Source of the DNA: Pirellulales bacterium
GTDB lineage: Bacteria; Planctomycetota; Planctomycetia; Pirellulales; PALSA-1355
Assembly (NCBI GenBank): GCA_963733035.1
Contig: CAVTBU010000008.1
Coordinates: forward strand, 288,001 to 352,000
Direction: 5' to 3'
DNA length: 64,000 nt
The translations under genes and the position numbers were made by a program. The stretch's first letter is position 1, and each line of letters starts with the position of its first letter. Positions 25,863 through 45,560 of the stretch are shown in pieces. The notes beneath the pieces are model-generated. The model ran no database searches. It had not been told where the DNA came from and was given only the letters and a program-made list of their open reading frames with translations.

Positions 25863-28800
25863 ATGAACCGAAAGACTCTGTTTGGTCGTGTTACTCGTTC
25901 GTTAACGGCGGAACGTCCCGAGTATGCTAGCGTGCGACTGGAGCCGCTCGAAGATCGCAAGATGCTGGTCGCGACGGTGTACGTGAATGACGACTGGACC
26001 GACATTGATAATCCGGGTGGACCGGTTCAAATCGGTGACTACGTCCAAAGCTCCATCGGCACCGATGGGGTCTCCGTCATCGCCGAGTACGGTTTCGACG
26101 CCTTCGGCACGGTCGAGGGGAGCACCCAACCAGGCGCTGCCACGATTTACGATGCCATTCAGGCCACGAGCACAGGCGGCACGCTGAATCTGTTGGGCGG
26201 CACCTACGCCGAGTCGGACATCGTCATCGATCGTCCCATGTCGTTCCTCGGCCAAGGCACCAGCGGCGCCACCGCCTCGGTGATCGTTCCGGAAGTGGTT
26301 TCGGCCGCTGTGCAAGAAAACTTCGGCGTCGGCACCCACTCGGGCATCATCATCTACTCGCCGACCGTCAACATTGCCAACGTCCGCGTCGACGGTGCCG
26401 GCAACGGTTCATTGGCCGGCAGCTACAACTTCCACCAGGGCATCACCACCCTCTACGACACGCAGAACGGTGGCGACTACAGTTCGCTGCATAACGGTCT
26501 ACTCCCCCTGATCCAACTGGGCCCGGCGGGGAGCGGCGAAGGTGGCGCACCGACCGCCTCGATTCCAGACATCTCGATCGACAGCGTCTCGGTCAACAAC
26601 GCCTACTGGCATGGTGTCACGATTTCGGCCCTGGCCGACTACGCGTTCAATCCGGGTGCTGATAACAACTACAACCTGCAGATCACGAATTCCGAAATCA
26701 ACGACATCGGTGACGTCAAAGACGTCAATCGCGTTGGCGTTCTACTGCAGAACTTGAACGACGCGTTAAACGGGTTTGCCAATGCCGCTTATGTCACGGC
26801 CACGAACACGGGCGTTGGTTTCCGGACTGCAGCCTATGGTTCAGCCCCGATTTTTGGACAAAACAATGTCGCCACCAACCAGTCGTACCTGCGGTTTGTG
26901 ACTGCCGTCGATCCGGTCGTCTATGGTATTGACGTCTCTTTTGAAAACCGCAGCGACGCCTACGGCTGGACCGTCACGCAAAGCGATCCCAACAACACTG
27001 CGGTCGGTGTTCACCTCAATTACTCCCGCTCACAACTGGTGGGTGCCGAGATTCATGGGACCAAGATTGGTGTCGAGGTCCAGAACGCCCCCGTGGCCCC
27101 GACCGGCACCGATGTGTTCTCTGGACTCGGTTGGGAAACGTCGATCACCGGTCCGGCCGGCGCCCCTGCCGGCTCGGTCGGCTGGCTCATCACCAGCGGC
27201 GCCGGCGATCAGTACGCCGTGGACACGACCATCAGCGCGGACGTCGCGATTTCTGGCTTCGATACCGGTGTCAAGATCGAGCAGCCCAACACGCCTGCCA
27301 GCGGCCGGCCGAACACGGTGATCTGGGGTAGCGGCGCTTACTCGAACGGGTCGGCCACGCCCCGGATATCCGGCAACAACACCGACATTGAGGTCGATAA
27401 CAATGGCATATTGAGTGGTGCCCCGAATGTCGCTGGCAACGTCGTGACTTCGGGCAATGGCACCATTGACCCGCGAATGTACAACTGGAAAACCCAAAAC
27501 CCCTACTTCTACGACGGCCCGGGCAACTCCGGGATTGGCAGTGCCGCCCCGGCAAATGCCGATGTGCAAAGCACCGGCAACGTCACCATGGGTAGCAGTT
27601 CGACTTTCTCGGCCCTGCTCACCAATAAGACGACCAGTGGGGACTTGTTCAACTTCAACAGTGCGGCAACCTACAACTTCAGCGCCCCGCCGGACAGTCC
27701 GGTCGATGGCGTGGTACCGCAGCCGTACGGGGCTCTGTTTGGCTGGTACCCACACATCACGCAGTCGGGCGACGGAGTGATGTCGGTCTCCAATGCCATC
27801 AACGGCTATGAGTACGAGTACATGTTCGGCACGAACAACACGCCAATCACCAGCGGTCCGAACGCCGGCAAGTACCAACTCGTCGGCACCGACATTTCCA
27901 ACATGTCGCACATCAACATGAAAGTCATGTTGCGGCCTGAAAATGTCAGCCACATGTTTGCCTTCGGTCTGATTGACTTCCGCGGCAACGCGAATGTCTG
28001 GACGGTCGACGCGACGCAGCTCAGCTCGACGACCTGGACGACGCTCACCTTTAACTTGTTGACGCCGACCATCGACCTGACCGGCCCCGATAGTCACCTC
28101 GACTTGACGAACGTCGCCGGCTGGCTGTTCGGTGGCGACCAGGGTCTGGCCAACGACATGCACACGGTGCCCGTTGGCTTCACCGTGGACGACATCAGCA
28201 CCTCGAGCGTGCCCAACAGCGAGCTCAACGTGACTGGTACCGTGACCTTGGGTGGAGCAGCGCTGAACGTCAATCCGCAGTTTTCGCCGACGGTGGGCCA
28301 GTCGTGGACCATCATCAACAACGATGGGGCCGATGCCGTCTCGGGTACGTTCTCCAGCGTTACGCCAGGCTACTCGGTGTCCTACACCGCGGGCGACGGG
28401 AACGACGTGGTGCTGACGTACACCGGCACTTCTGTGACACCCATGACTGTCGTGGGTCAGCAGATCTTCTACAACAACTCGAGCTACGACGCCAACACGC
28501 CCGCCATCAGCGCCTCGGACGACGCGGCGATCGCCACGGACAAGGCGGCCTTCAACGGCGTGGGAACCGCGCCAACCACGGCGTTTACCAGCTACAGCAA
28601 GGGTATCAATGGCATCATGATCGATGTCACCAATGAGCCCGGCAATTTGTCGCTGTCCGACTTCACCTTCAAGGTCGGCACCAACAACATGCCCAACCTC
28701 TGGGCGAACGCTCCGACTCCGACCGGTTTTTCGATCCGGCCGGGCGCGGGTGCCGGTGGTTCGGACCGGGTGGAAATCATCTGGGCCGATAGCGCCGTTG

Positions 28801-29417
28801 CCAACGAATGGCTGCAGGTGGTGGTCCGAGGAAACGACACGGTCGGTGGCAACTGGACCAATACGGGGTTGACCACCAGCGACGTGTTCTTCTACGGCAA
28901 CCGCATCGGCGACAACTTCACCGGCGAGCCGCCAACACTGGTCACCACCAACGCGGGCGACGAGATTTACGCTCGTAACAACACGGGCTTCTTATTGCCG
29001 GTCACCAACATCACGGACTTCAACAAGGACAAGTTCGTGAACGCGGCCGACCAGATTGTCGCCCGCAACAACGGCGGCTTTTTGACCCGCGTGATCAACT
29101 GGGTTCCACCGGCCGCTCCCGTAGCGTCGCCGTCGGTGGCCACCAGCAGCAGCGATGGGACTGGTTCGGCCGTGGCTTCGGCCCTGGCTATTCATGCCAC
29201 GCCCAGCCTGCCGAACGTACCGGGCTGGATCGCCTCGCGACTGGCCAGCGTGGACCTGAACAGCGGCCCGATCGCCACGGTGTTCACGCACCTGGCCGCG
29301 GCCGACACGCCTCGCACCCGGCAGCTTTTGCAGGCGGTCGATCAACTGGCCGATGATCTCGGTCTCGACGATTCCTTGCTGGATTCGCTGATCGGTGACG
29401 TCGACGAGACCGCCTGA
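25863..29417 (+). CDS. Large surface protein: beta-helix passenger-like region plus shared C-terminal module
   Basis: VRLEPLEDRKMLV; YVNDDW..TIYDAIQA..GGTYAE; LNVTGTVTLGG..SYTAGDGNDVVLT; FYNNS..DDAAIATDK..TSYSKGINGIMID..DFNKDKFVNAAD. Confidence 0.85.
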   Translation: MNRKTLFGRVTRSLTAERPEYASVRLEPLEDRKMLVATVYVNDDWTDIDNPGGPVQIGDYVQSSIGTDGVSVIAEYGFDAFGTVEGSTQPGAATIYDAIQATSTGGTLNLLGGTYAESDIVIDRPMSFLGQGTSGATASVIVPEVVSAAVQENFGVGTHSGIIIYSPTVNIANVRVDGAGNGSLAGSYNFHQGITTLYDTQNGGDYSSLHNGLLPLIQLGPAGSGEGGAPTASIPDISIDSVSVNNAYWHGVTISALADYAFNPGADNNYNLQITNSEINDIGDVKDVNRVGVLLQNLNDALNGFANAAYVTATNTGVGFRTAAYGSAPIFGQNNVATNQSYLRFVTAVDPVVYGIDVSFENRSDAYGWTVTQSDPNNTAVGVHLNYSRSQLVGAEIHGTKIGVEVQNAPVAPTGTDVFSGLGWETSITGPAGAPAGSVGWLITSGAGDQYAVDTTISADVAISGFDTGVKIEQPNTPASGRPNTVIWGSGAYSNGSATPRISGNNTDIEVDNNGILSGAPNVAGNVVTSGNGTIDPRMYNWKTQNPYFYDGPGNSGIGSAAPANADVQSTGNVTMGSSSTFSALLTNKTTSGDLFNFNSAATYNFSAPPDSPVDGVVPQPYGALFGWYPHITQSGDGVMSVSNAINGYEYEYMFGTNNTPITSGPNAGKYQLVGTDISNMSHINMKVMLRPENVSHMFAFGLIDFRGNANVWTVDATQLSSTTWTTLTFNLLTPTIDLTGPDSHLDLTNVAGWLFGGDQGLANDMHTVPVGFTVDDISTSSVPNSELNVTGTVTLGGAALNVNPQFSPTVGQSWTIINNDGADAVSGTFSSVTPGYSVSYTAGDGNDVVLTYTGTSVTPMTVVGQQIFYNNSSYDANTPAISASDDAAIATDKAAFNGVGTAPTTAFTSYSKGINGIMIDVTNEPGNLSLSDFTFKVGTNNMPNLWANAPTPTGFSIRPGAGAGGSDRVEIIWADSAVANEWLQVVVRGNDTVGGNWTNTGLTTSDVFFYGNRIGDNFTGEPPTLVTTNAGDEIYARNNTGFLLPVTNITDFNKDKFVNAADQIVARNNGGFLTRVINWVPPAAPVASPSVATSSSDGTGSAVASALAIHATPSLPNVPGWIASRLASVDLNSGPIATVFTHLAAADTPRTRQLLQAVDQLADDLGLDDSLLDSLIGDVDETA

Positions 29418-29432
29418 GGTTTGACAACGACC

Positions 29433-29466
29433 TGTTGGTCGCCCCCAATAACGGGGGCGACCAACA
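29433..29466 (+). terminator. Strong hairpin after the surface-protein gene
   Basis: TGTTGGTCGCCCCC-AATAAC-GGGGGCGACCAACA, 14-bp perfect stem. Confidence 0.65.
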
Positions 29467-29567
29467 ACAGTTTGAAAAATCTATCCCAGGCCGACGCTTG
29501 CGCATTGCAGAACGCATGAGGAGGCCCGCAACCGCCTGATTCTTCGACAGATGCGGGTGTTTCGATT

Positions 29568-29611
29568 AGTGGACAGGGGCGGGATCGAACCGCCGACACA
29601 CGGATTTTCAG
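29568..29611 (-). repeat. att site: duplicated 3' half of tRNA-Phe
   Basis: AGTGGACAGGGGCGGGATCGAACCGCCGACACACGGATTTTCAG, identical to 45486-45529; identity ends at the anticodon loop. Confidence 0.95.
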
Positions 29612-29773
29612 GACATCCTAGACAGTTGGTATTTGTCGAAGAATCGCGTATTTCTCGGGAAATACCCAACACTCGAAGTCGGTCGAACCGGATCGAAACC
29701 GGCTGACGGGTTGTCAGGTTGTCAGCTTTTGGGACGGATTTCTAATCCGTGTCCCATCAAACGGGCATCACAA

Positions 29774-30196
29774 CTATTGAAGCGAACTAGCAGCGTCCGC
29801 CAAAAACTTTTTCAGGCGGGCTTCCGTCAATGCGTCTTCTCGTGGCTTATCCAGATTCGGCGGGTACATTTTGACGCTCTCAGACGGAAGTATCGGCTGC
29901 CCGATCAACTCGCCTGGCAAAGAGCGATGACCAGCCTCAGAATGAGCATCGAGCGCGAATCTAGTGACCTTAATGCCACTGTGTTCGACCAAGGCACGAA
30001 AGTATGCGAGCGCAGGAATTACGTGGTTGAACCAATCCTCAGAGGGATGATCGTCGGTGCCCAGAATCGGGTATCGCCAACATGAACCCCCGATATGCTC
30101 CCAGCCAAACCGAAGAAACGCAACTTGAATGCGCGTTCGGTCGTTTGGGTCCTTCACACTAGCCGTCTCTAAATCAAATGAAAACGTGATTGGCAT
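29774..30196 (-). CDS. Hypothetical protein, possible VapD/Cas2-like ferredoxin fold
   Basis: ITFSFDL..RIQVAFLRFGWEHIGGSCWRY resembles the VapD pattern IAFDL..I...L..FGF...QGSxY. Confidence 0.45.
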   Translation of the reverse strand: MPITFSFDLETASVKDPNDRTRIQVAFLRFGWEHIGGSCWRYPILGTDDHPSEDWFNHVIPALAYFRALVEHSGIKVTRFALDAHSEAGHRSLPGELIGQPILPSESVKMYPPNLDKPREDALTEARLKKFLADAASSLQ

Positions 30197-30259
30197 TTGT
30201 GCGACCTGAAGGGGTTTGTGGTTCATCAATCAGAATGTCAAGGGGATAGCGCTTCAGAA

Positions 30260-30682
30260 TCACTTCTCCGCGTCCATGTTGACGGCGGTGTAGAAACCCA
30301 TCGGCTCTCGTTCGGGCAATCGTTTGAGCGCAACACACGATAGGTTTATTTGGCTGATATGCTGAATCAACCGTCTCGGATTTCCGTCAACATCGAAGCC
30401 ATCGAAGATGATAAGCACCGGACTTCGGTAGCCGATGGTTTGGACGTACATATTTACGCCACTGCCAGACACGAAGGCGGCGATACCTACATCCTTGTCT
30501 GGTGGCAGACTCTTGTGAAACTCGTTGAAGGCAGCCGCAACTTCATCGCACACGCCAGCAGCGTCTAACTTGTACTTGGCTTCCGCGATTGCTGCATTGA
30601 CTTTGCCTTGAGCCAATAAACTGTTGTACGAGTCGCGGGCAATTGCATCGGTCATTGATTTGAGCCGGTCAAACGCACTCAT
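30260..30682 (-). CDS. DUF6173-like protein
   Basis: FHKSLPPDKDVG..YVQTIGYRSPVLIIFDG..DGNPRRLIQHISQINL..REPMGF matches my recollection of this family. Confidence 0.65.
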   Translation of the reverse strand: MSAFDRLKSMTDAIARDSYNSLLAQGKVNAAIAEAKYKLDAAGVCDEVAAAFNEFHKSLPPDKDVGIAAFVSGSGVNMYVQTIGYRSPVLIIFDGFDVDGNPRRLIQHISQINLSCVALKRLPEREPMGFYTAVNMDAEK

Positions 30683-30911
30683 GTCCGATTCCTTCCCTTT
30701 CCTTAACCGCCAGACGGGCGTCCGGGCTGGGTCCGCAGTAGCCTTCCCTGGCAATCGTCCACACTGGGTTCACAAAGTCGCCTTCGCCATAGACGTGGAT
30801 GGCATCGACGTACTTCATGTTCTGCGCGAACAGTTGGGTAGCTTCCTGTTGGGCTTCCTCAAAAGTCGGCCACCAGCCGAGTTGGTTGTCGAACCAAATA
30901 GCGAACTTCAT
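30669..30911 (-). CDS. Hypothetical protein (80 aa)
   Basis: ATGA overlap with the upstream Zn-finger gene, overlaps the downstream gene start. Confidence 0.55.
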   Translation of the reverse strand: MKFAIWFDNQLGWWPTFEEAQQEATQLFAQNMKYVDAIHVYGEGDFVNPVWTIAREGYCGPSPDARLAVKEREGIGHECV

Positions 30912-31126
30912 GGTTGTTGCCCTGCCCCGATGATGGTGGTCTTCACAAACTCGTGTTGGCAAGCAGGGTTGAGGCATTGGTGCCGGTAGGTCGTTGACGT
31001 GTGGACCTTCTCAGCCTCGTCTGCAAAGGCGGTTTCCATTCGGGTGATTTCCGACTGAGCCTTGCACTTGGGGCAGGGCACGTTGGTGATGTTCCCCGCC
31101 ACTGGATCGGTGATTCTGGTAGGCAT
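30908..31126 (-). CDS. Ogr/Delta-like zinc-finger protein
   Basis: CPKC...YRHQCLNPACQHEFVKT. Confidence 0.6.
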   Translation of the reverse strand: MPTRITDPVAGNITNVPCPKCKAQSEITRMETAFADEAEKVHTSTTYRHQCLNPACQHEFVKTTIIGAGQQP

Positions 31127-31128
31127 TT

Positions 31129-31224
31129 TTATTTCTTTGGTGGGGCTTTCGGGGCGGGTGGCTTCTCTTGGGTCTTCGTAGGCTTCGGATTCGAGCCGCC
31201 TTTGACTTTCTTGGGATCGACCAC
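31129..31224 (-). CDS. Pro/Lys-rich peptide 5 (31 aa) MVDPKKVKGGSNPKPTKTQEKPPAPKAPPKK
   Basis: GTG start behind AGGAGG; stop 2 nt before the next ATG; not in ORF track. Confidence 0.75.
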   Translation of the reverse strand: MVDPKKVKGGSNPKPTKTQEKPPAPKAPPKK

Positions 31225-31236
31225 TAGGCGAACCTC

Positions 31237-31375
31237 CTATTTAGACTTCCGTGGTGGTGGTGCTGGCGGCGCTGGTGGGCGTGCTGGCGGTCGCGGTGGA
31301 GTGATTGGACGCTGTGAACTTCGGATAGGACAGCGGCCATTAAAAGCCGTTGTTGACAGGAATGTTGTCGGACAT
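31237..31375 (-). CDS. Pro-rich peptide 4 (45 aa after removing one T) MSDNIPVNNGFNGRCPIRSSQRPITPPRPPARPPAPPAPPPRKSK
   Basis: ATG behind GGAGAA; as assembled a T4 run near 31342-31345 gives a premature stop, T3 restores the ORF. Confidence 0.65.
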
Positions 31376-31378
31376 AGT

Positions 31379-31579
31379 TCATTCTCCCGATTTCGGTGTG
31401 GCGGGCGGCTGTGCCGTGGTCGCGGTCTGAGCGACCGGAGCGGTGGCCGGGGCGGGTGGTTTAGCTAACGATACGGGCCTGCTTCCTGTCCGGCCAGCCT
31501 TTATCTGCACTTCACCGGGGGCAGGGCCGTTCAACCCTTCCATAATGTGTTCAACAGCGCGTAGTTCGTCGTCGGACAT
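31379..31579 (-). CDS. Pro-rich peptide 3 (66 aa) MSDDELRAVEHIMEGLNGPAP...AKPPAPATAP...PPATPKSGE
   Basis: ATG behind AGGGAG; 3' part of ORF 31379-31660. Confidence 0.75.
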   Translation of the reverse strand: MSDDELRAVEHIMEGLNGPAPGEVQIKAGRTGSRPVSLAKPPAPATAPVAQTATTAQPPATPKSGE

Positions 31580-31589
31580 TCGAGTCTCC

Positions 31590-31721
31590 CTACTTCGATT
31601 TTTTAGGTGGGGCCGCTGGCGCGGGCGGCTTGGCGGTCTTGGGTGACTTGGCTTGTACACCCTCTTGAAGTATGCGCCGTGTCTTCTGTCCTGTACGTGA
31701 GTAACGGTCTTTGTTTGGCAT
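31590..31721 (-). CDS. Pro/Lys-rich peptide 2 (43 aa) MPNKDRYSRTGQKTRRILQEGVQAKSPKTAKPPAPAAPPKKSK
   Basis: ATG behind GGAG; not in ORF track. Confidence 0.75.
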   Translation of the reverse strand: MPNKDRYSRTGQKTRRILQEGVQAKSPKTAKPPAPAAPPKKSK

Positions 31722-31732
31722 TATCAACTCCG

Positions 31733-31882
31733 TTAGCTCGGATTCTTCGGCGGCTTGGGCGGGGCTGGCGGCGCTGGCGGCTTCGCTGCCTGCGGTCTGC
31801 CCTGCGCTCCACGCTGACCATCAGTTGCACAAGCGTCTCGCTGCCTGCGGTTTGGTGAAGGGGTTGGAACTTTGCTTCCCAT
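31733..31882 (-). CDS. Pro/Lys-rich peptide 1 (49 aa) MGSKVPTPSPNRRQRDACATDGQRGAQGRPQAAKPPAPPAPPKPPKNPS
   Basis: ATG behind AAAGG; 3' part of ORF 31733-31927. Confidence 0.75.
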   Translation of the reverse strand: MGSKVPTPSPNRRQRDACATDGQRGAQGRPQAAKPPAPPAPPKPPKNPS

Positions 31883-31930
31883 GTTGGTTTGACCTTTCGG
31901 ACTAACTGGCGATTGCGTCTTGCCCAACCA

Positions 31931-32611
31931 TTATACCGGATTCCCGTTCGTGGCCTCGCGCTCGTACACGTATTTTGCAAACTCCACTCGCTCAACATCC
32001 TTGGCGCGTATCAAGACGATGGAAACGTCGTCCAGCTTCAATTTCGTCGAGCCGTCATCGTTGATCCACTCAGCCTCGGCCATAATGAAATGGCCGTTAT
32101 CCGGCTGGTCGGGCCATTCTTCCGCCCAGCCGTACAATCGCCTTCCATCCTCAAGATTCAAAACGATGTACCGTTGCCCTTCGCAATGGAAGGCGCTGTA
32201 CCATTCGCCGGGATAAGCTGTTCGCTTTGTCCAAACCCATCCGGTCGGCAGTTCGCCCTCGGGAATTTTCTCAAAATTCCACCGTCGTGAACTGAGGAAT
32301 CCGTGGATGGTGTTGTTGTTCGCGAGCGAAGCAATCGCAAGCCCGAACAAGAGGGCAATTAACAGCGACCAGCCGAGCGCCACGTCGGTGGTCCAGTCGC
32401 CGAGAATGAACGTCACCTGCCCCAGCCAAAAAAGAAGCTGACGAACGATTGCCGTGAGCACCTGAATTATGGCGCTGAACACCAGCGCCTGAACCGTGCG
32501 CTCGAATTGGTCCCGTCTCGGGTGAGCCGTGAGTCCGTAGAAGACCCATGCCGCGAGAAACCCCGGCATGAGGGCCAGAACGATGGCGATGATGTCCTTG
32601 GAAGGAAGCAT
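31931..32611 (-). CDS. DUF6338-like membrane protein
   Basis: LMPGFLAAWVFY, three TM helices, then W..AF..YIVLNLEDGRRLYGW..WP..HFIM..WI..VLIRAKDVERVEF small beta-barrel. Confidence 0.75.
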   Translation of the reverse strand: MLPSKDIIAIVLALMPGFLAAWVFYGLTAHPRRDQFERTVQALVFSAIIQVLTAIVRQLLFWLGQVTFILGDWTTDVALGWSLLIALLFGLAIASLANNNTIHGFLSSRRWNFEKIPEGELPTGWVWTKRTAYPGEWYSAFHCEGQRYIVLNLEDGRRLYGWAEEWPDQPDNGHFIMAEAEWINDDGSTKLKLDDVSIVLIRAKDVERVEFAKYVYEREATNGNPV

Positions 32612-32768
32612 TTGCGCAGCCTCAAGTGCCTGTTCACTTGTCCATTAAAGCTAGCAAATTCCCCGATGGGAGGGAAGGCCGATTTTTCGGCCACCCTTGG
32701 TTGGCCAATTTGCCGCAACTCTGCTACAGTCCCCACCCCTCGCAACGAACGCAACCAAGGGGCCACGG

Positions 32769-32930
32769 ATGGCACCGCACCCGCTCGAATCTCAGTACGG
32801 ATTGACGGCGCTCGAATTGCTGGACGCCATCGGCAGTAGGTTCCGGCTGAAAGATCGGCACTACTCCAAAGATTCGGAACTGAGATTCAGCGAGCCGCAA
32901 GAGGCGGCCGGCGAAAAGTTGTTGTTCTAA
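32769..32930 (+). pseudogene. Short probable gene remnant
   Basis: MAPHPLESQYGLTALELLDAIGSRFRLK looks protein-like, then degenerates and stops at 53 aa. Confidence 0.3.
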
Positions 32931-33715
32931 GGGGCAGTCGGCACAGCGCTTGGGTCGGGTGCGTGCGTCCGCCAATAATCCAAACAGTAAGGATTGATGA
33001 TGGTGATGGGGCCACCGCCGTTGTCGTTTAGGTCCGGGTACATTTGCGTGTATTTGTACGAACTGGAATCAAAGCTAGTCGTGACGTTCTGTCCACGACC
33101 AAAGCTGCCACCAGCACTACCGCTTGTGCTATTCCCCATTGAATAGTAACTGCCTCCAAAGCCACCAGCACTACCGCCAGTAGTGTTGCCATAGCCAAGA
33201 TAGCCGCCATTTCCGCCGAATCCGCCCGTACCAACGCCTACTTGGCGGGTGTTGCTTTTGGCAGACGAGCCGGCCACGTCCATCGTGGTCATGTCGCCAC
33301 GCTCTCTCAGGTATTCCTCATGTCGTACTTTTGCGTCGGCGACTTGTTGCTTGTTGTATGCCAATGCCCAAGCCCGGAATTCGGCATCGGTGCACGTTGC
33401 GAAGTCGATGCCTTTGACAACAACAACCGGTGCAACGATCCGATCCGAGACGGTGACGCCATTGGATAGGATGATTTCCTTGGCGTTGGCGGCAACGGCC
33501 ATCATCACGACCAGTGCGGCTCCAATCAGCCTCAAGAACGGTAAGCGACGTGCGAGACGCAACGTCGCGTGCTGCTCGGGTGTGGGTGATACATGCAAGA
33601 CGCGCGGATTTCCATAATTGGCGTCTCGCACAACGACATGGGCCACACCATCGAAATACGTGATGATGTCTGTTGCCCCAATGCCGCAAGATGCTAACTC
33701 GTGTGTGTGAATCAT
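32927..33715 (-). CDS. Hypothetical protein with internal signal-like helix and Gly/Ser-rich region
   Basis: LRLIGAALVVMMAVAANA; GGFGGNGGYLGYG..GGSAGGFGGSYY; ATGA overlap with the HTH gene. Confidence 0.6.
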   Translation of the reverse strand: MIHTHELASCGIGATDIITYFDGVAHVVVRDANYGNPRVLHVSPTPEQHATLRLARRLPFLRLIGAALVVMMAVAANAKEIILSNGVTVSDRIVAPVVVVKGIDFATCTDAEFRAWALAYNKQQVADAKVRHEEYLRERGDMTTMDVAGSSAKSNTRQVGVGTGGFGGNGGYLGYGNTTGGSAGGFGGSYYSMGNSTSGSAGGSFGRGQNVTTSFDSSSYKYTQMYPDLNDNGGGPITIINPYCLDYWRTHAPDPSAVPTAP

Positions 33716-33906
33716 GGTTGTTTGCCCTTCAATTCGAGTTTGAAGAAATCGCACAATTTCTGCGCAGCGTTGAGACTCAATCCCCTAGTCCCTACGCGAA
33801 AACGTTGGATTGTTCCTTGGTCAATTCCAGTCTGGCGGGCAAGGTCCAAATCGTTTCCATGTTCCTTGACCTTGCGACGTAAGGTCTGTTCGATTTGCTT
33901 GGTCAT
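33712..33906 (-). CDS. Small Cro/XRE-like HTH protein
   Basis: DLARQTGIDQGTIQRFRVGTRGLSLNAAQKLCDFF; AGGAG RBS. Confidence 0.8.
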   Translation of the reverse strand: MTKQIEQTLRRKVKEHGNDLDLARQTGIDQGTIQRFRVGTRGLSLNAAQKLCDFFKLELKGKQP

Positions 33907-34126
33907 TGGGCTTCTCCTATTTGAATTATGGCATTCTGCCATACCTGCGACAAGCCCTATCCTATGGAATATAGCCATATGGCACAATTCCAATGTCTGG
34001 CGGGTCCGATTGTGCCTAGCGGTCAAAGCAAGTGATATGGCCGATCTTGATGGAATCAAGGTTGCTTCGGTGTAATTCCAAGCAAGGCTAGAAGTAGGTC
34101 AAGACTTCCAACTTGGAGCTACTTCA

Positions 34127-34423
34127 ATGACAGACTGGCAAGACATGAAAGTAGGGGAACTCGCGGACGTGATAGGCGTCCCGGCCTGCAAGGTCTATAC
34201 CGCCTTGCTCCAACTGAGAAACCAACAGCGAGCCCAAGCAATGCAGAGTTGGGAACTGGTCGCCGCATTCGAGCGACATGGCGTGCCGAAGCAAGACCAC
34301 CGCGCCCTTACACTGCTTATCAGGCTGGGGAAAGCCTCACGTCGTTTGCAGGCGCGACGTGCTGAGTTTCAGTCTTGCCTAAACGAAATCTGGGGAATCA
34401 TAACCAAGCGTGAAAAGTGCTAG
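34127..34423 (+). CDS. Hypothetical protein, possible HTH, divergent from the Cro-like gene
   Basis: MKVGELADVIGVPACKVYTAL; GGAG RBS. Confidence 0.5.
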   Translation: MTDWQDMKVGELADVIGVPACKVYTALLQLRNQQRAQAMQSWELVAAFERHGVPKQDHRALTLLIRLGKASRRLQARRAEFQSCLNEIWGIITKREKC

Positions 34424-34432
34424 AATTCAAGT

Positions 34433-34609
34433 ATGGATGAAGACCAGCAAGCCGAACTAGAAATGCACCTTGCCGCCGGAACCGACATTCCGACCGCCTT
34501 CGCGGCTGTCCAAGGCGACGAACCGCCGCAAGGGCGGGGCCGATTCGTGGCAACCACAATCGGCGTGATAGTGGCCTTGCTTTTTATGATTCTCTGGCTC
34601 TGCGCATGA
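34433..34609 (+). CDS. Small membrane protein (58 aa)
   Basis: MDEDQQAELEMHLAAGTDIPTAFAAVQGDEPPQGRGRFVATTIGVIVALLFMILWLCA; below ORF-track cutoff. Confidence 0.5.
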   Translation: MDEDQQAELEMHLAAGTDIPTAFAAVQGDEPPQGRGRFVATTIGVIVALLFMILWLCA

Positions 34610-34685
34610 AAAACCCCAACTGGCCGAAGCCAGTTGGGGGCAATCATGGTGCAACAAACCATGCTTGTGCGACTGTTGCACAGCG

Positions 34686-35707
34686 CTATTCGATCTTGAA
34701 ACCGAATTGTGCCGCCTGTCTACCTCGGAAGGTGTCCAAGGGCCGGTCGTGTCGGGATTCGTCTCAAAGATTTCAGACTTTTGAACGTAATCGGTACTGC
34801 CGATGGTTTGGGCTGAGCCTTCCCCGGTCGTCGTGCCGCTCTTTGCTAGTAGCTTCACGTCTAGCGGGCTCGCGTCCGTTTGTCGGCAAACTGTGTTGAC
34901 CGTGACAGCAAAAACTTGACTGACGTTGACCAAGTTTTGATGGTCATACAAGTCGATGTCGCTGGCGGCGCCCGTCACGTAATCCGTGTCATCGTTAGCC
35001 GGGTTGTCATCGACGAGCGCATAGTTGTCGGTCCCGGTGCTCGGCGTACAGTCAACCGCACCATCCCCATTTGGAAAGGTGGTCTGAACCTTAAACGACC
35101 CAAGAAAGTCGTTGTTCGTCGCGCCGCTTTCGTCCAAAACGTAGAAGTCATCAAAATGAAACTGCACCCCAAGGATATTTGATCCCACGATGCGAATGGC
35201 ATTTGTATAGGCGTTGCTCGCGGGCTGGGTGTCGATGCCCGTGGCCGACAGCAGGGTTATGCCGTTTACACGCAATTCGTACTCGCCGGCCGAGTTGTCC
35301 ACCTTGACGCGCAACTCAACTGTTGCCCAAGTATCGACGGGCAAGACTTGGCCGCTAGTCGTGGCAAGATGCGTGGTGTCGAAATAGATCGACCATTCCC
35401 CGCTTGTTTGTCGCCGCAGATTGATTCCGACGTTGGAACCGTCGAGAAACTCGCAGATTCGTGACTCCGCAGCGATTGCGAATGCCGCTTTGAATCCGAA
35501 GCCACAGATTAGTGTTTGTGTCGCTGGAAGCGAGACACCACAAAAGTTAGCCGGGTCAAGGCTGACGGCTTTCCCGCTAATGCGACCATCACGCACACGC
35601 ATGAAGCTAGAGATACTGCCATCGGTCCATTTACGTGCCATACCGCTAGGCGTGACGTTATTCGTTGCACCATAGGCGTCAAAGCCGTCAATGAAGATGA
35701 TCGACAC
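34686..35707 (-). CDS. Beta-sandwich (LamG/ConA-like) protein resembling phage virion proteins, frameshift near 34715
   Basis: IFIDGFDAYG, WATVELRVKVD..GEYELRVNG, FHFDDFYVLD; alternative frame gives a compact end AAQFGFKIE* at 34686. Confidence 0.6.
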
Positions 35708-40122: not shown

Positions 40123-42197
40123 TCATGCGGCTGCCCCTTTCAAAAGGAAACCTGGGATGGTCTTAGTTTTGGAACCACGATTCGGTACTTGCCCGGCGAC
40201 AATATCTTCAAAAGGCAAAAGTGAACTCACCCGTTCTCTGCCAAGTTGTGACCGGACAGCAAGCGAACTCAACGTAAGCCCCTTGGGGTGTGCGGCGAGT
40301 ATCGCACGAATGGCCGTGATGTCTTTGTCATCCTCGCTCGCTTTCACTTCGGCGATTTCCTCTTGGTCACTGACAAGAGTTGGAATCCAGACACGCCCCC
40401 CTTCGTCAGAAAGTGACCGTTCCTCGATGTCAAGGTGATGCTCGCTTGCATGACCAGCACTGCCACCCAAAGTCATCCATAGTTTGTGTGGCTTGTTGGG
40501 AACGAATTTCGCGCGTCTGTTGAGCAGAATCCATTGCCGTGCGAATTCGCTGAAGCCCGACATTGCAAGGTCTTCGAGCGCCAACGCTTTCCCTGTTTGG
40601 CAGCCCCTTTGACGCTGTGATGTGCGATGGCCAGTTGAGCGCCGTGCTCTTGCATGACGAGTTTATTGCGCAATAGTTGGCCTTGCGCGAACACGTTGCT
40701 CGGGTCGCCCTCCCCGATGCAAAGATAGAACGGATCAATAATCAAAAACTCAATTCGATGACGCTCCAATGTCCGGGTAAGTTTGGCGAGAGACGATGGA
40801 TCATTAGCTTGTGGTAAATCTTCTGACCATTTAAGCGCGTCCAAATCACACGCTTCAAGTGTGTGACGCCAACCGATACGAATGGCCGTCTCTTGTAGTG
40901 TCTGGATGCCAGACTCGCCGCTCATAACCAAAGTTCGGCAGTGTTGGTTGACCGGGAAGTGACCCAGGAAAGGCGACTTCGACGCGAGCGAGATTGCAAG
41001 GTCTAGTAGAACTGAAGTTTTCATCGCCTTGCTTGCGCCACCAGCAACGAGTGGCTGCCTCGCGACAAGCACCTCGGGGATTAACCATTCAACGTCATAG
41101 TCGCCAGTCGCCAGTTCCCAAGATGAAATGACTTTGAATGTGTCGTCAGCGTCGGCGGCGTTGCTGGTAGTGGGCGGTTGCCAGCCATCCTGCCGTGCGA
41201 GGTAGAACAGCGTGGCAACCTTCGCGCCATCGTCTCTCCCGAAAGACTTCCAACGATTCTTGGTTTCGCCGGGCTTGTACTTGGCTGAACTCTTGGACAA
41301 ATCGTCCCACAACGGTAGGTATTTCTCTGTGCCATCACCGGCATCGTGGAGAGCGGAACCGATGCGAAGCCAATCGTGGCAATCGTCGAAACGCTTTGGG
41401 TGTAGTGCGGCAGCAGCCAAATAGATTTGTTGTGGCGTGTGGGAAGTCGAGGATAGCGAGTCGTACCAGTCTTCCTGTGGCTGGGCTGTTGGCAAATGGG
41501 CTGTTGGCAGCATGGCCACAAGCGTCTCGCGTGTAAGCGTCTCGCGAGTCGCGGGGCACGATATGATGGTTGACTGCCGGTGTGGACGATCTGGCGTGTT
41601 TGGCCCTTTCCGATTCCAGTTGCCGGTGCGTTCTCGCATTAGCTGACTCAGTGTCCACACTGAGTCGTCTACCGTGACCTCGGGTATGCTGAATTTGTCT
41701 CGAATGTGAAAGACAAATGCTTTGACAAGCTGGTTGTCTGCTACTGGCAGGTCACAGGCGAAGTAGGCTTGCACCCCGGAACCGCTATCGACAATCAGCG
41801 GCTCGGGGAACCCATGTTCCCGGCAGTATTGGATTGCCGCGTCGGCAACCGCTTTGGCAGCAGCACGTTCGCCGTCCGTGGCCGATACGCCTTTCGGTCG
41901 CACGGGGTCGAAGTCGAGCGGGAGGGTGCGAATTCTGACGATATGCTTGTCGCTGGTGCAAGCACCGATCCTGGCAGAATCATATCGGTTGGTGATGGGC
42001 ACCGAATCGTCAATCTGGTTGACCGTCCAGTGGACCCCACCACCCGCGAAGTCGCTCACGTCGTCTATCAGGCGGGCGGAGTCGCGGTAGAAGCCACTGA
42101 GGCGATTCCCCGCCATGTCATAGGGGCGGATTTCTACCGGGCCGGTCGGGTGTAGAAACTGGTGAGCGAGACGGACATCATCTGCTGGTGTGTTCAT
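40123..42197 (-). CDS. Primase (AEP-like + PriCT-2) fused to AAA_25/RepA helicase, frameshift near 40590
   Basis: LDFDP..DSGSGVQAYF; WLRIGSALHD..WDDLSKSSAKY; GGASKAMKTS, LIIDP, IAHH; ORF 40123-40584 supplies LEDLAMSGFSEFARQWILL. Confidence 0.85.
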
Positions 42198-43161
42198 CAA
42201 AAATTCCTTACTTGTTCGACGCGGGTGGGTTGGTTTTGGAGTGAAACCAACCGAAACCAACCCCCTTGAAAATATGTGATATTTCCCGAGAGATTTGCAT
42301 GTTTGGGTTAGTGTGTAATTAGGTCTGTCTATAGGGAAAAACGCCAAGACGTTTTTCCCCGCCGACAGACACTTGACGAGAGGGGGTTTGAGGTTGGCGG
42401 AGTCTGCTAAAAACACACCCAACCAACCTAGAACCCCCTGCTGTATTGATTACGAGTCAATTTCGGGCAGCATTTTGAGAAACTTCCCGAGAGCGCCAAG
42501 AATCCTCCGACCACCCGCCAGCCGACGCGGCAATAAGCCCCTCCAATGGGACAACGGTCGTTATCGCCCAAGACTGCCAAGGCGGCCTCGCGGTTACAGA
42601 CCGAACCACACCTGTACATTAGTACATTCACTCACAACCCGCAAACACGCCACAATCGACAAATTCGTCACAGTCACCCCAACCAGCTCAGCCGGCAAAC
42701 TCAGCACAATCGACAAACATGCCACAACCGCCCCGCGCGGCCGGTCAGCGAGGGGTGGCGGTTGTCGGCGGTTGTCAGTACCACGGCGAAGCCGTGGAAA
42801 TCCCCTAGAAAACAAGGGGTTTTGAGACATAAGACCACGGATTCTGTATCCGTGTGTTGTTCTGGCAGTCGGCGTCGGGCAGTCAGCGTCGGGCGGGCGA
42901 GGGTGGGGTGGGGTCAAATGTCGGGGCAATGCCCACTATGCCGGTCGTAGCGACGGCCCTGCCCTATCCCGACTGGCTGGGGGATTTTGAAGACCGGACC
43001 ACCGCGTGGATAAGTATTGTCCACAAAACGCTTTAGGATGGCCTAGGACGCTTCGGCGCGAATAGTGGTGTCATTCGACCTACCTGCCACTCGCCCACCA
43101 TCCTGGACGCTCACAGGCGGCCCGTGCGGCGAATGCAGCCCCTATTCGCCGCACGTCGGCA

Positions 43162-43289
43162 GGTCTGCGGGCGGGCGGGTCTGCGGGCGGGCGGGTCTGC
43201 GGGCGGGCGGGTCTGCGGGTCGGCAGGTCTGCGGGCGGGCAGGTCTGCGGGCGGGCAGGTCTGCGGGCGGGCAGGTCTGCGGGTCGGCA
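43162..43289 (+). repeat. Tandem repeat, 8 x 16 bp GGTCTGCGGG(CG/TC)GGC(G/A)
   Basis: Eight contiguous units counted, partial unit from 43155; no spacers. Confidence 0.95.
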
Positions 43290-43446
43290 CAACCGGACCC
43301 TGTCGGCAAAAGAATCGGCTGCAAGCGCCAGATTCTCAAAATGCGGGTCGCTCTCATTTCGTCTCCATTATGTACCGCTAATCGAGTTACCGACCCGCCG
43401 GCCGCCTTGCGGGCCGCCTCTCACTTCCCCGAATCGAAAGCTGACG

Positions 43447-43890
43447 ATGTCACTTTGTAGAACCTGCGGCGAACCGCTCCGAACCACGGGTTCGGAGTGC
43501 GAAGATTGCATTTCCAATCGACGTGACGCTCGCCCCGCCCGCCGGCCCACCCCCGACGCCTCCGATCCACTCGGCGGCCAGCGGCGAGCGGTCTATGAAA
43601 TTCTGATTGCCAAAGGTGTCCAAAACCCGATCACAATTTGCGATGAAGTTTTTGAAAAACTCGCACGCGATCTACCAGAAATGCTGAAAGCCCGTGCGCT
43701 TCAGGCGGCCGGGCTGGCGGAACGCGAGCCCCGCACGGACAACACTACCGGGCATCAGGGCGTTGACCGGCACAGAGGGAAATTCCGGGCACGGGTCTGG
43801 CGTGGTGGTCGATGCGTTTGGCAACGGTCCAGCATCGACCTAGACCGGGCGGTAGCCGCGAGGGCGAAGTATCTGGCGGACCACCCATGA
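43447..43890 (+). CDS. Zn-ribbon plus AP2-like DNA-binding protein
   Basis: CRTC..CEDC; NTTGHQGVDRHRGKFRARVW..AVAAR. Confidence 0.6.
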   Translation: MSLCRTCGEPLRTTGSECEDCISNRRDARPARRPTPDASDPLGGQRRAVYEILIAKGVQNPITICDEVFEKLARDLPEMLKARALQAAGLAEREPRTDNTTGHQGVDRHRGKFRARVWRGGRCVWQRSSIDLDRAVAARAKYLADHP

Positions 43891-44106
43891 CGACATACAC
43901 GACCGCCGAAGTCGCCGGAATCTTGAAGGTGTCGCCGGACACGGTACGCGGCAAGATACTGTCGCGGCCAGCTTCAAGCGTTGAACTTGGCCGAGCCCGG
44001 CCATCGCCCGCAGTATCGCGTCACAGCCGAACAACTGGTAGCGTACCAGCGGCGGGCTACGGTCCTATTGCCTATCGCAATGGGACGACCGCGACGGTCA
44101 GCTTGA
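43887..44106 (+). CDS. xis: Excisionase (MerR-like HTH), frameshift near 43962
   Basis: YTTAEVAGILKVSPDTVRGKI continues in another frame as GQLQALNLAEPGHRPQYRVTAEQL; adjacent to the integrase. Confidence 0.75.
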
Positions 44107-45336
44107 CCATTCGACCGGGGCGAAGCCGTCGCGGTCGTGTCGCTTCAGCTTTTCCTCGCCGATATACCAGCGGCGGACAAATGAACTGACTTCAACCAGC
44201 CGCTCAGCATACACACGCTGACGATACAGCCCCGGCATGGTCGAATCTTTGTGCCCCATGATATGGTTTGTGGCCGGCTGGTTGCCCGCTGCTGCCGCGA
44301 CCGTGGCAAACGTCCGCCGAAGCCCGTAGAAGCTGGTCGTGCCCTTCTTATATATGCCCAACTCAACTAGCAACTCTCGAAACGCTTCTGAAATGTGGTT
44401 GAAGCATTCGTCTTGATCGACCCATGCGCTGCCATCGGGGCGTAAGAATACAAGGTCACTGTCGCTCTTGGGACGAACCGCGACCGCTGCCTTGATGGTT
44501 TCCACGACTTCAGGCCAGAGCGGGGCGTGCCGTTCGGTGCCAGTCTTGAAACGTGGCTTGTGGTGCCAGCCGGCTTTAAGGTCCAACTCGCCGAATTGTA
44601 GGGTTCCGCAGTCGGCGTTGCTGAAGGCACACGACAACCCCAGCAAGATCATGGCCCCGAGTCCCGGGTCAGCCGCCTTGACCATTGCTTGAATTTCGTC
44701 AGCCGTGAAGTCTCGGGCACCGCGAGCTAGATTCAGCCGATGGAATTGCAGCCGGCCGGGCGGGGCTAATGCCTGTTGGTATCGAAGCGGCTTTTCAGTC
44801 AGCCCGTTTTCGACGATGTACGCAAACAGCATGGTTGCCCGGTTCAAGTGTCCCTTTTGCGTGGTCGGGTTGAGTAGACCACGTTTCTTGCGTGGCAGTC
44901 TGCGCTTCGGGTCTTTGGCCAGCCGCCTAGCTTTTCCCTTTTCGATGGCCCCGGCCATTCGCTGGAAGTCAGCCGCTTCAAGTGAAGCAAGCGGGGTGTT
45001 CTCATTGACACCCATCGTGAGCAATTCACACGTTCGCTTGTAATCGCTCAGACTTCGTGGGGTCAGCTTCCCGCCATCGACGCGAGCCTGTTTGAAGTCG
45101 AGAAAATGATTGATCGCTTCGCCCAGCGTATAGCCGCCGATAGGCTGTTGCTCGCGGCCGGCGTGAAGTCCGTCGCGCTGCTTCACGTATTCATCAAGCG
45201 CGGCTTGCCAGTCGGGCCATCGTCCGAAGTAGTGAATCTTGCCCCGTATCTTTTTGCAGTAGCGACCATCAACACGGAGGGACAACGGGAAGTCTTTGTA
45301 CGGTGGGTCTGGTAGGTCAGTGGCGCTCTTGAACAT
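44098..45336 (-). CDS. int: Tyrosine integrase
   Basis: N-terminal arm-binding YCKKIRGKIHYFG; RFKTG; FYGLRRTFAT; MGH..GLY; adjacent to the tRNA att. Confidence 0.9.
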   Translation of the reverse strand: MFKSATDLPDPPYKDFPLSLRVDGRYCKKIRGKIHYFGRWPDWQAALDEYVKQRDGLHAGREQQPIGGYTLGEAINHFLDFKQARVDGGKLTPRSLSDYKRTCELLTMGVNENTPLASLEAADFQRMAGAIEKGKARRLAKDPKRRLPRKKRGLLNPTTQKGHLNRATMLFAYIVENGLTEKPLRYQQALAPPGRLQFHRLNLARGARDFTADEIQAMVKAADPGLGAMILLGLSCAFSNADCGTLQFGELDLKAGWHHKPRFKTGTERHAPLWPEVVETIKAAVAVRPKSDSDLVFLRPDGSAWVDQDECFNHISEAFRELLVELGIYKKGTTSFYGLRRTFATVAAAAGNQPATNHIMGHKDSTMPGLYRQRVYAERLVEVSSFVRRWYIGEEKLKRHDRDGFAPVEWSS

Positions 45337-45467: not shown

Positions 45468-45487
45468 ATCATTCAACTTAGGCGAAG

Positions 45488-45560
<73 letters not shown>

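Follow-up and report, generated by a model that had tools for sequence, protein, structure and literature searches.

The window analysed here is a stretch of 64,000 nucleotides (nt) from a Pirellulales bacterium (assembly GCA_963733035.1, contig CAVTBU010000008.1, positions 288,001 to 352,000). It carries, on its minus strand, a gene for a membrane protein of the DUF6338 family followed by five short open reading frames (ORFs), p1 to p5, which encode proline-rich peptides (Table 1). Read from the ORFs, the order is DUF6338, p1, p2, p3, p4 and p5, and all five short ORFs fit into the 0.8 kb that follows DUF6338, on the same strand and with gaps of 3-48 nt: 48 nt between DUF6338 and p1, followed by 11 nt (p1-p2), 10 nt (p2-p3), 3 nt (p3-p4) and 12 nt (p4-p5). 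Only 2 nt separate p5 from the next gene. The reading frames are 1, 2, 1, 1 then 0 (p4) and 0. A preliminary description of this locus had given coordinates, strand, ORF sizes, spacing and motifs that all proved correct on re-reading the sequence. It had also attributed a Shine-Dalgarno-like site to every ORF. GGAG-like sequences are indeed found 8-11 nt ahead of the starts of p2 to p5, so we retain this claim for most of the ORFs. DUF6338 and the short ORFs form a real minus-strand operon, in which four peptide genes are intact and one is frameshifted.

Table 1. Features of the DUF6338 operon and of the integrative element that carries it (positions in the window; aa, amino acids)
Feature	Coordinates	Strand	Description
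DUF6338 protein	31931..32611	-	226 aa; ends with TAA at 31933-31931; Pfam PF19865
p1	31733..31882	-	49 aa; lead (type A) peptide; tail KPPAPPAPPKPPKNPS
p2	31590..31721	-	43 aa; tail KPPAPAAPPKKSK; GGAG 10 nt before ATG
p3	31379..31579	-	66 aa; acidic N-terminus; EGLNGPAP motif like type B extra peptides elsewhere
p4	31237..31375	-	45 aa, frameshifted copy; ATG at 31375; tail RPPAPPAPPPRKSK
p5	31129..31224	-	31 aa; GTG start; AGGAGG 8 nt upstream; tail KPPAPKAPPKK
att repeat, first copy	29568..29611	.	perfect 44-nt direct repeat; marks the element end
tRNA-Phe	45487..45560	-	3' part (45486-45529) is the second att copy
Integrase gene	44098..45336	-	adjoins tRNA-Phe
PriCT_2/AAA_25 primase-helicase	40473..42422		element gene

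With regard to the homologues of the DUF6338 protein, we collected the best 80 of 198 confirmed relatives (35-49% identity) in species-representative genomes, together with six metagenome loci, and the end of the DUF6338 gene could be fixed in 84 loci. The six metagenome loci came from a scan for close relatives, and none of them corresponds to the 59-66% identical homologues. According to the record titles, the loci belong to more than ten phylum-level groups: Planctomycetota, Gamma-, Beta- and Alphaproteobacteria, Desulfobacterota-type lineages, Chloroflexota, Bacteroidota and Rhodothermales, Spirochaetes, Armatimonadota, Acidobacteriota, Nitrospirales, Sumerlaeota and Glassbacteria. A crude filter, which retained stop-to-stop frames of at most 130 aa with at least five prolines and at least one Lys/Arg in the last 16 residues, was positive downstream of DUF6338 in 82 of the 84 loci. 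A profile was then built from 112 peptides of 78 loci, with the window excluded and four obvious noise frames dropped. At E<=0.01, this profile gave 116 matches, all of them just downstream of DUF6338 and on the same strand, in 79/84 loci, and no match elsewhere in the 84 loci (13,803 six-frame segments in all). As this count is circular for near matches, two-fold held-out halves were also run: the profile trained on the even loci matched 38 of the 42 odd loci and the one trained on the odd loci matched 36 of the 42 even loci, i.e. 74/84 together, with no match elsewhere among 6,944 and 6,756 segments, respectively. The enrichment of short ORFs that the preliminary description had envisaged in the flanks of the homologues is therefore present.

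The peptide genes are closely tied to the DUF6338 gene. In 47 of 78 loci, the start of the first peptide gene overlaps the DUF6338 gene end, and in 23 more it is located 0-30 nt past the DUF6338 stop codon; the starts were chosen automatically (first ATG), so that single start values are approximate. Most loci possess one peptide copy (57 loci), while two copies are found in 15 loci, three copies in 3 loci, and four, five and seven copies in one locus each. The seven copies are those of Serratia quinivorans, where they lie in AT-rich DNA, each behind a canonical ribosome-binding site. No recurrent third gene was found beside the pair in Pfam scans of 150 neighbouring ORFs (41 loci, L002-L042). 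DUF6338 and its peptides are almost certainly a real conserved two-part module, and the pair is translationally coupled and mobile as a unit. The family also extends to archaea, as Haloferax volcanii, one of 14 control genomes, contains a DUF6338 protein above the Pfam cut-off.

The peptides of the other loci (n=112) have a median length of 49 aa, a proline content of 29% and a median net charge of +5. A Lys/Arg is found within the last six residues of 111 of them, PPP is present in all 112, with proline runs of up to 13, and Cys is present in only 11. Their longest hydrophobic run comprises 5 residues, which leaves no room for a signal peptide or a membrane segment and extends to the whole family the absence of signal peptides previously noticed in the window. 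Two types can be distinguished. The lead (type A) peptides, 61 of the 112 by pattern, start with M-(G/S)-(K/S/A)-K-x-(P/S)-(N/Q)-P-x-P and continue with G-x-N and N-P-P-P-P motifs, then (K/R)-P-x-P-P-P-P-P-K-K. The extra (type B) peptides exhibit varied, often acidic starts, NG-P motifs and the same tail as their neighbours. Tail identity, computed outside the Pro-Pro columns over the ten residues that lead up to the end of the last proline run, is 0.35 within loci (61 pairs) vs 0.057 between loci (6,119 pairs). In the window, the locus-specific tail signature is KPPAP.

The peptides have no match among the models of Pfam, NCBIfam and PADLOC. Searches of a collection of 5.8 billion proteins with the profile returned 46 proteins, all 'hypothetical protein' or unnamed, and searches of a representative library of 1.84 billion returned 50 proteins, of which 49 are 44-63 aa long and matched end to end. 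Such short end-to-end matches indicate a discrete small-protein family and not a motif of larger proline-rich proteins. The tails of p1, p2, p3 and p5 are of the PPAPPAPP type and lack PPP, unlike all 112 peptides elsewhere. As these four have no three prolines in a row, the conserved property is a PxxP or polyproline-helix pattern with basic flanks rather than a ribosome-stalling run, and the tails of the window speak against a dependence on EF-P as a conserved property here.

The membership of the five peptides of the window was assessed in their own genome (6.6 Mb, 142,990 six-frame segments) with the window-free profile. The three best matches are p1 (E 9e-6), p2 (E 0.032) and p5 (E 0.15, and 0.12-0.9 across profiles, hence marginal alone), and the next one, located on another contig, has an E value of 0.3. 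The type-A profile gives E 1e-6 for p1 and E 1.9e-4 for p2. The N-terminus of p1, MGSKVPTPSPNR, agrees with the planctomycete consensus MGSKAPQPAPNR in the peptide alignment. With the type-B profile, p3 reaches E 0.13 at genome scale, which is marginal; its tail is extended (KPPAPATAP) and has no basic end. Both p3 and p5 are supported by their [KR]PPAP motif and by their position. By profile, p1 and p2 thus appear to be the only secure family members, p3 and p5 being marginal genome-wide and p4 unsupported. Nevertheless, p3 and p5 are probably members too: this is a judgement and not a computed value, made because the positional search space comprises about 20 frames and not 142,990.

The [KR]PPAP motif occurs 157 times in the 11.6 million six-frame residues of the genome, which corresponds to 0.011 expected occurrences per 800 residues, and five are observed here. 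Five [KR]PPAP within 1 kb of a single strand are found nowhere else in the genome, and three are found at one further place. Across the five copies of K/R-P-P-A-P, codon positions 1 and 2 are constant, except for the change from Lys to Arg in p4, whereas the third positions vary. The earlier proposal of conservation at the protein level is borne out by these third positions, which also indicate that the selected frame is the minus strand and not the Gly-rich plus-strand ORF at 31001-31468. The GC content by codon position did not discriminate between the strands.

With regard to p4, its first 11 codons (MSDNIPVNNGF) are followed by a TAA at 31342-31340, and the proline-rich remainder lies in the +1 frame up to a TAG at 31239-31237. 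This +1-frame part has no ATG, GTG or TTG of its own, and the 45-aa product requires a shift at the four-base T-run 31345-31342. The DNA encoding the tail of p4 is a 23-nt repeat common to p1 and p5. At genome scale, p4 does not score with any peptide profile, and its shift site is outside the coverage of public contigs. The frameshift may be a sequencing error in the four-base run, a pseudogene or a recoding site. A programmed +1 frameshift at UUU-UAA is possible in principle; neither an upstream Shine-Dalgarno-like stimulator nor comparative support was found for it.

The DUF6338 gene and p1 are in the same frame, separated by one TAA (31933-31931) and 16 sense codons. Reading through this stop codon would give a protein of 292 residues, and a 62% identical homologue has 291 aa with a disordered basic tail. 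In fifteen other loci too, the first peptide frame is directly in frame after the DUF6338 stop codon. We considered p1 as a detached tail of DUF6338 and rejected this candidate, as p1 carries the conserved N-terminus of the family and the peptides are encoded by separate genes elsewhere.

Public data cover the locus in part. Public contigs match the window only at 31806-31956 and 31970-32120, and the region of the DUF6338 stop codon is identical in the first of these (151-nt contig). These contigs may derive from the source sample. The contig pieces that align at 31251-31299 and 31759-31780 are short look-alikes from other DNA. One public DNA run contains 16% of the sampled words of the region, and neither a public RNA run containing it nor a proteome of the organism was found in the search of public data. 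Rfam gave no match in 29000-34500, and the scan for promoters and terminators gave nothing above the shuffled expectation. Upstream of the operon, at 32927-33754 on the minus strand, lies a gene for a 275-aa protein without Pfam match, the C-terminal half of which consists of Gly/Ser/Asn/Tyr-rich repeats (GGFGGNGGYLGYG...); this gene has a 30-nt internal DNA repeat.

Peptides of this type have been detected once before. In a digest-free proteomics study of Pseudomonas stutzeri ATCC 14405 (Anal Chem 2023; PMC10433244), three unannotated proline-rich proteins, SEP1, SEP5 and SEP2, are reported directly behind the DUF6338 gene Pstu14405_RS12030. They comprise 36, 47 and 41 aa and were identified with 85, 114 and 44 spectral matches, respectively, at 98-100% coverage (PMC10433244, Table S5). 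With tBLASTN searches (>=60% coverage, >=40% identity), the authors found no relatives outside P. stutzeri and suggested de novo genes (PMC10433244). By eye, and without application of the profile, the P. stutzeri sequences exhibit G-x-N, NPPAP-x-N-[IV]-RP and PPPPPK, i.e. the pattern of the family. The cross-phylum family that we found by sequence comparison contradicts the species-specific or de novo status of these peptides. The P. stutzeri locus resembles that of the window in that DUF6338 is followed by same-strand basic proline-rich peptides (36-47 aa, with a PPPPPK(K/R) end), whereas the window has five copies, PPAPPAPP tails in place of long proline runs, a type-A lead peptide and an integrative element.

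This study is the one paper in the searched literature that names DUF6338, and further literature searches, judged by their listings alone, gave nothing relevant. Likewise, no description covering the pair as a family, a model or a system was found in Pfam, NCBIfam, PADLOC or the literature. The preliminary description had called the system undescribed. This stands for the family and for the system, but the P. stutzeri peptides had already been reported, in a study that did not recognise their conservation (PMC10433244).

The assignment of the membrane protein to DUF6338, first made without a profile search, was confirmed with Pfam PF19865 (E 4.7e-17; 62.7 bits vs a cut-off of 26.5), residues 7-212 aligning to profile positions 8-200 of 205. 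A genome-wide profile scan gives the same result. The protein has no match in PADLOC, NCBIfam or PHROG. In the AlphaFold2 model, obtained with an alignment of 30 sequences (mean predicted local distance difference test score of 83), three long helices at residues 5-27, 35-66 and 75-98 precede a C-terminal beta-barrel at about 130-215, with strands between 148 and 211. Archaeal and eukaryotic Sm/LSm proteins rank first in a Foldseek search of the PDB (1i4k, template modelling (TM) score of 0.75 on the target, E 1e-4). In a second structure scan (VIA), the best match was 6ppv_A, with a Z score of 8.4 and a root-mean-square deviation of 1.7 A over 67 of 69 residues, and about 40 other Sm, LSm and Hfq entries came next. 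In VIA, Z scores near 8 are also common for unrelated small domains, so we claim a fold class and not homology. At this level, the predicted structure supports an Sm/LSm-like C-terminal domain, in line with the small Sm/SH3-like barrel initially proposed.

Among 30 homologues, the near-invariant residues cluster in helix 1 and loop 1 (G17, F18, A21, W22, T28, A29, H30, P31, F36, E37 and R38) and in or before the barrel (W137, W162, E165, W166, P167, D168, H174, F175, W182 and E210). The barrel probably faces the cytoplasm, since Arg/Lys residues are present in loop 1 and after helix 3, as expected from the positive-inside rule. A prediction of the complex of DUF6338 with p1 scored 0.01 against a mark of 0.32 and, being without controls, is evidence neither way. 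No fused, longer forms of DUF6338 were scored among 1,818 candidates, which is weak evidence. In a gammaproteobacterial symbiont (L026:3435-3731), a 98-aa ORF located about 270 nt upstream of DUF6338 corresponds to the barrel half only (profile positions 110-200). It is a second, truncated or split DUF6338 copy, and this locus is among the few without a peptide match.

The operon of the window is carried as cargo by an integrative element of 15.9 kb that is inserted in tRNA-Phe. The element is bounded by the two copies of the 44-nt repeat, with the DUF6338 operon close to the end that is remote from the integrase. The preliminary description had spoken of a partner-plus-diversified-peptide system on a mobile element, and both parts of this phrase hold, as the element ends are marked by a perfect repeat and the pairing is general. 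Besides the genes given in Table 1, the element carries a helix-turn-helix regulator, an HNH protein and small genes without assigned function. We take its layout to be reminiscent of P4-like satellites.

Several other features of the element and its border were observed. A weak Ogr/Delta-like zinc-finger gene (E 0.007) lies at 30908-31126 in the element. A 416-aa element protein (34457-35707, minus strand) matches phrog_2448 (function not assigned) over its full length with E 3e-40, and this is the only strong link to a virus family in the element besides the integrase and the primase. Between the primase-helicase and HNH genes, at 43123-43314, the element contains a GC-rich array of 8-/16-nt units (GTCTGCGG GCGGGCGG) with 14 overlapping register copies. 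This array could be composed of iterons, be the replication origin of the element, or be a coding repeat of the ORF at 43065-43460. A gene for an 1184-aa protein with no Pfam match at E<=0.01 is located just beyond the att site, at 25863-29417 on the plus strand.

Of 401 genomes sampled from the phylum, 9 contain a DUF6338 protein above the Pfam cut-off, and the three genomes of the same order contain none, a distribution which indicates an accessory, patchily spread gene. In Vibrio cholerae ATCC 14035 (L050), DUF6338 (534-1121) and one peptide gene (1126-1260) are the only genes between two repeats of about 124 nt (383-505 and 1260-1383), which are related to each other and each include inverted repeats. 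These repeats resemble the attC (VCR) sites of the superintegron, in which case the pair would constitute one integron cassette. The downstream 124-nt repeat has the stop codon of this peptide gene in its first bases, and the boundary of the putative cassette coincides with the end of the peptide.

The genes surrounding the pair were compared with PADLOC models at E<=1e-15, taking two ORFs on each side in 82 loci (288 ORFs; one weaker match was not counted). Matches were obtained for 27 of the 288 neighbouring ORFs, in 22 of the 82 loci. They include BrxC (E 0), AbiEi with AbiEii, TRIP13 with NucC, a TIR effector, two type IIG enzymes, one type I enzyme, PDC-S28 (6e-304), PDC-S33 and Aga-SIR2. 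In eight random 20 kb regions of the genome of the window, which served as a control and were processed with the same ORF caller, 4 of 139 ORFs matched, and all four matches were generic (protein kinase, sigma-54 activator, ABC ATPase and methyltransferase). The Fisher p value is 0.016 for 27/288 vs 4/139 with this one control genome, and 7e-5 after three generic neighbour matches and all four control matches were dropped, a filter of our own. We read this as a moderate enrichment of defence genes beside the pair. In the Pfam scans, housekeeping enzymes were found next to the pair as well as a relaxase, integrases, AbiTii, a subunit of a type I restriction enzyme and SIR2.

Based on these observations, we favour, as the best explanation as a whole, a toxin-antitoxin-like or abortive-infection conflict module in which the peptides control a membrane effector, and we give this reading a probability of about 0.45. 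The cassette-like autonomy of the pair and its defence-island neighbours are the reasons for favouring a conflict role. Considered separately, direct binding of the peptides to the barrel is the part towards which we lean, by analogy with SH3 domains, while a defence or toxin-antitoxin-like role is put forward more tentatively. The peptides, which have no signal peptide, would be cytoplasmic, and their PxxP or polyproline segments with flanking Lys/Arg would be polyproline-II ligands docking on the barrel, at a surface formed by the conserved aromatic and acidic residues (W137, W162, E165, W166, P167, D168, H174, F175 and W182). In SH3 biology, small barrels lined with aromatic residues classically bind polyproline-II segments that carry a basic anchor. 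Bound peptides would keep the membrane protein, which is probably oligomeric like other Sm-fold proteins, in a controlled state. As the membrane part suggests an effector, peptide occupancy would set the state of this effector, and the short disordered peptides produced by coupled translation would act as labile regulators. A loss of host translation would lead to the disappearance of the peptides and to the release of the effector, and additional peptide copies could widen or buffer the control. Locus-specific tails would be expected from co-adaptation to one receptor or from recent in-place duplication.

A bolder version of this scheme is a new class of gene-encoded, ligand-gated membrane effector acting in abortive infection by translation surveillance, in which an Sm-like barrel ring under a helix bundle is held shut by polyproline-helix peptides. 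The peptides would have to be produced without interruption, through translation coupled to that of the effector gene. When a phage or stress stops host translation, the peptides would be lost and the membrane breached; such modules would spread through integrons, integrative elements and defence islands, and diversified peptides would resist the counter-measures of phages. We regard this version as unlikely.

The pair can be compared with several known systems. SH3-type small beta-barrels bind PxxP ligands with flanking Arg/Lys. Similarly, the barrel of DUF6338 is small, with conserved Trp, Pro and acidic residues, and the peptides carry PxxP ending in Lys/Arg; in contrast to SH3 domains, the fold matches Sm/LSm, the barrel is membrane-anchored and the putative ligands are encoded by separate genes. 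Cap15-type effectors of cyclic oligonucleotide-based antiphage signalling systems (CBASS) combine membrane helices with a small beta-barrel and bind cyclic nucleotides made by a cyclase. They share with DUF6338 the N-terminal membrane helices, the C-terminal small beta-barrel and the occurrence in defence islands, and the effector logic would likewise be ligand-controlled membrane damage. By contrast, the present locus has no cyclase, a peptide encoded by its own gene is the candidate ligand, and neither sequence comparison nor PADLOC links the two proteins. MscS channels have three membrane helices and an Sm-like beta domain, i.e. the same order of parts as DUF6338; MscS is absent among the 50 best structural matches listed, which does not exclude a likeness.

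As in type II toxin-antitoxin systems with a labile, partly disordered antitoxin, the pair is compact, autonomous and horizontally mobile, comprises two genes with coupled translation and occurs in integron-like cassettes and on mobile elements, whereas the lack of a match to toxin or antitoxin families, the toxin-first order and the presence of up to seven 'antitoxin' copies distinguish it from them. Apidaecin, oncocin and Bac7 are secreted eukaryotic proline-rich antimicrobial peptides with PRP-type repeats. The peptides of DUF6338 loci are also cationic, proline-rich and unstructured, but they have no export signal, exhibit poly-Pro or PPAP tails with Lys and are always tied to a membrane protein. 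In Rz/Rz1 spanins, the small proline-rich Rz1 gene is tied to a membrane-protein gene; unlike Rz1, the peptides described here have no lipobox or signal segment, and a tblastn search of 50,697 phage records gave no match to DUF6338. Regulatory leader or arrest peptides are encoded ahead of the gene that they regulate, whereas the present ORFs follow DUF6338 and no conserved gene comes after them.

Several observations weigh against a conflict module. The absence of DUF6338 from the phage records is one of them, and only 1 plasmid record of 72,556 contained it in the same type of search. Neither DUF6338 nor the peptides match any PADLOC model. About three quarters of the loci have no defence-model match within two genes, many neighbours are housekeeping genes, and the unfiltered enrichment, measured against a single control genome, is modest (odds ratio of 3.5). 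Sm-fold proteins are best known as RNA binders and not as peptide binders, and a toxin-first order with multiple antitoxin copies is unusual for toxin-antitoxin pairs. In P. stutzeri, the peptides were abundant in ordinary growth, and DUF6338 itself was not detected (PMC10433244). Such abundance fits a constitutive partner and is no demonstration of a conflict role.

A membrane complex outside conflict ranks next: DUF6338 would be a membrane-anchored scaffold or sensor, with the peptides as constitutive subunits or adaptors, and the pair would be mobile as an accessory adaptive trait. It might act in envelope or translation stress, or handle RNA via the Sm-like domain with basic peptide co-factors. 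Such a function would suit the many loci that lie among genes for aminotransferase, HPPK, panB, chorismate synthase and dnaN, the lack of PADLOC matches, and the presence of Hfq and LSm among the structural matches of a fold that typically binds RNA. It is less easily reconciled with the patchy distribution (9/401 genomes), the carriage by an integrative element here and between cassette-like repeats in V. cholerae, and the specific defence genes enriched nearby, and we consider it rather unlikely. The two remaining functional explanations, antimicrobial export and a purely cis-acting proline pause, fit less well than either the conflict or the physiological explanation. If the peptides were leaderless cationic proline-rich antimicrobials or signals, DUF6338 would release them or provide immunity, as in those bacteriocin loci that combine several structural genes with a small membrane immunity protein. 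Their charge, composition and size (40-60 aa) and their tandem diversified copies are compatible with this, and the authors of the P. stutzeri study raise an antimicrobial role and state that DUF6338 occurs in biosynthetic gene clusters (PMC10433244). Yet the peptides lack a signal peptide, a double-glycine leader and any hydrophobic segment, neither a transporter nor a modifying enzyme recurs among the 150 neighbours, the barrel is predicted to be cytoplasmic, and most loci (57/78) have a single copy. Moreover, the N- and C-termini are conserved, whereas bacteriocin cores are usually variable. An antimicrobial function is thus distinctly improbable.

Action in cis, in which pausing at proline runs, with dependence on EF-P, would set the stability or translation of the mRNA and the peptides would be by-products, could draw on the PPP present in every peptide elsewhere, the runs of up to 13 prolines and the tight translational coupling to DUF6338. 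It is made very improbable by the position of the ORFs downstream of DUF6338 with no conserved gene after them, by the conservation of non-proline motifs (the N-terminal M-G/S-K-K-x-P/S-N/Q-P and G-x-N), by the PPAPPAPP-type tails without PPP of p1, p2, p3 and p5, and by the accumulation of full-length peptides reported for P. stutzeri (PMC10433244). Finally, the short ORFs could be chance frames in GC-rich DNA, or fragments of a decayed low-complexity gene or of a DUF6338 tail, as might be suspected from the frameshift in p4, the single TAA between DUF6338 and p1 in the same frame, the long disordered tails with basic ends of some homologues, and the weak or negative genome-scale scores of p3, p4 and p5. 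This explanation is largely refuted and retains hardly any probability: since their frames differ, the ORFs cannot be one gene; each has its own start, most with a Shine-Dalgarno-like site; p1 opens with the conserved N-terminus of the family; 49 of the 50 proteins found among 1.84 billion are short and match end to end; Serratia has the same arrays in AT-rich DNA, behind canonical ribosome-binding sites; and the P. stutzeri peptides were detected by mass spectrometry (PMC10433244).

With the present results, a Pfam domain of unassigned function gains an obligate peptide partner that annotation pipelines almost never call. The peptides constitute a cross-phylum, as yet unnamed family of about 50 aa, basic and proline-rich, with no entry in Pfam, NCBIfam or PADLOC, and the only published statement that we found on them, which describes those of P. 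stutzeri as species-specific and possibly de novo, is overturned (PMC10433244). The conservation of the pair also shows that scanning the flanks of DUF genes can reveal conserved families of short ORFs. For DUF6338 itself, a concrete and testable hypothesis can now be put forward, namely that its membrane-anchored Sm/SH3-like barrel has the peptides as ligands. Should the pair prove to be a conflict module, it would represent a new effector-regulator logic for bacterial immunity; if it is not, it would still be a widespread complex of small proteins with a membrane protein.

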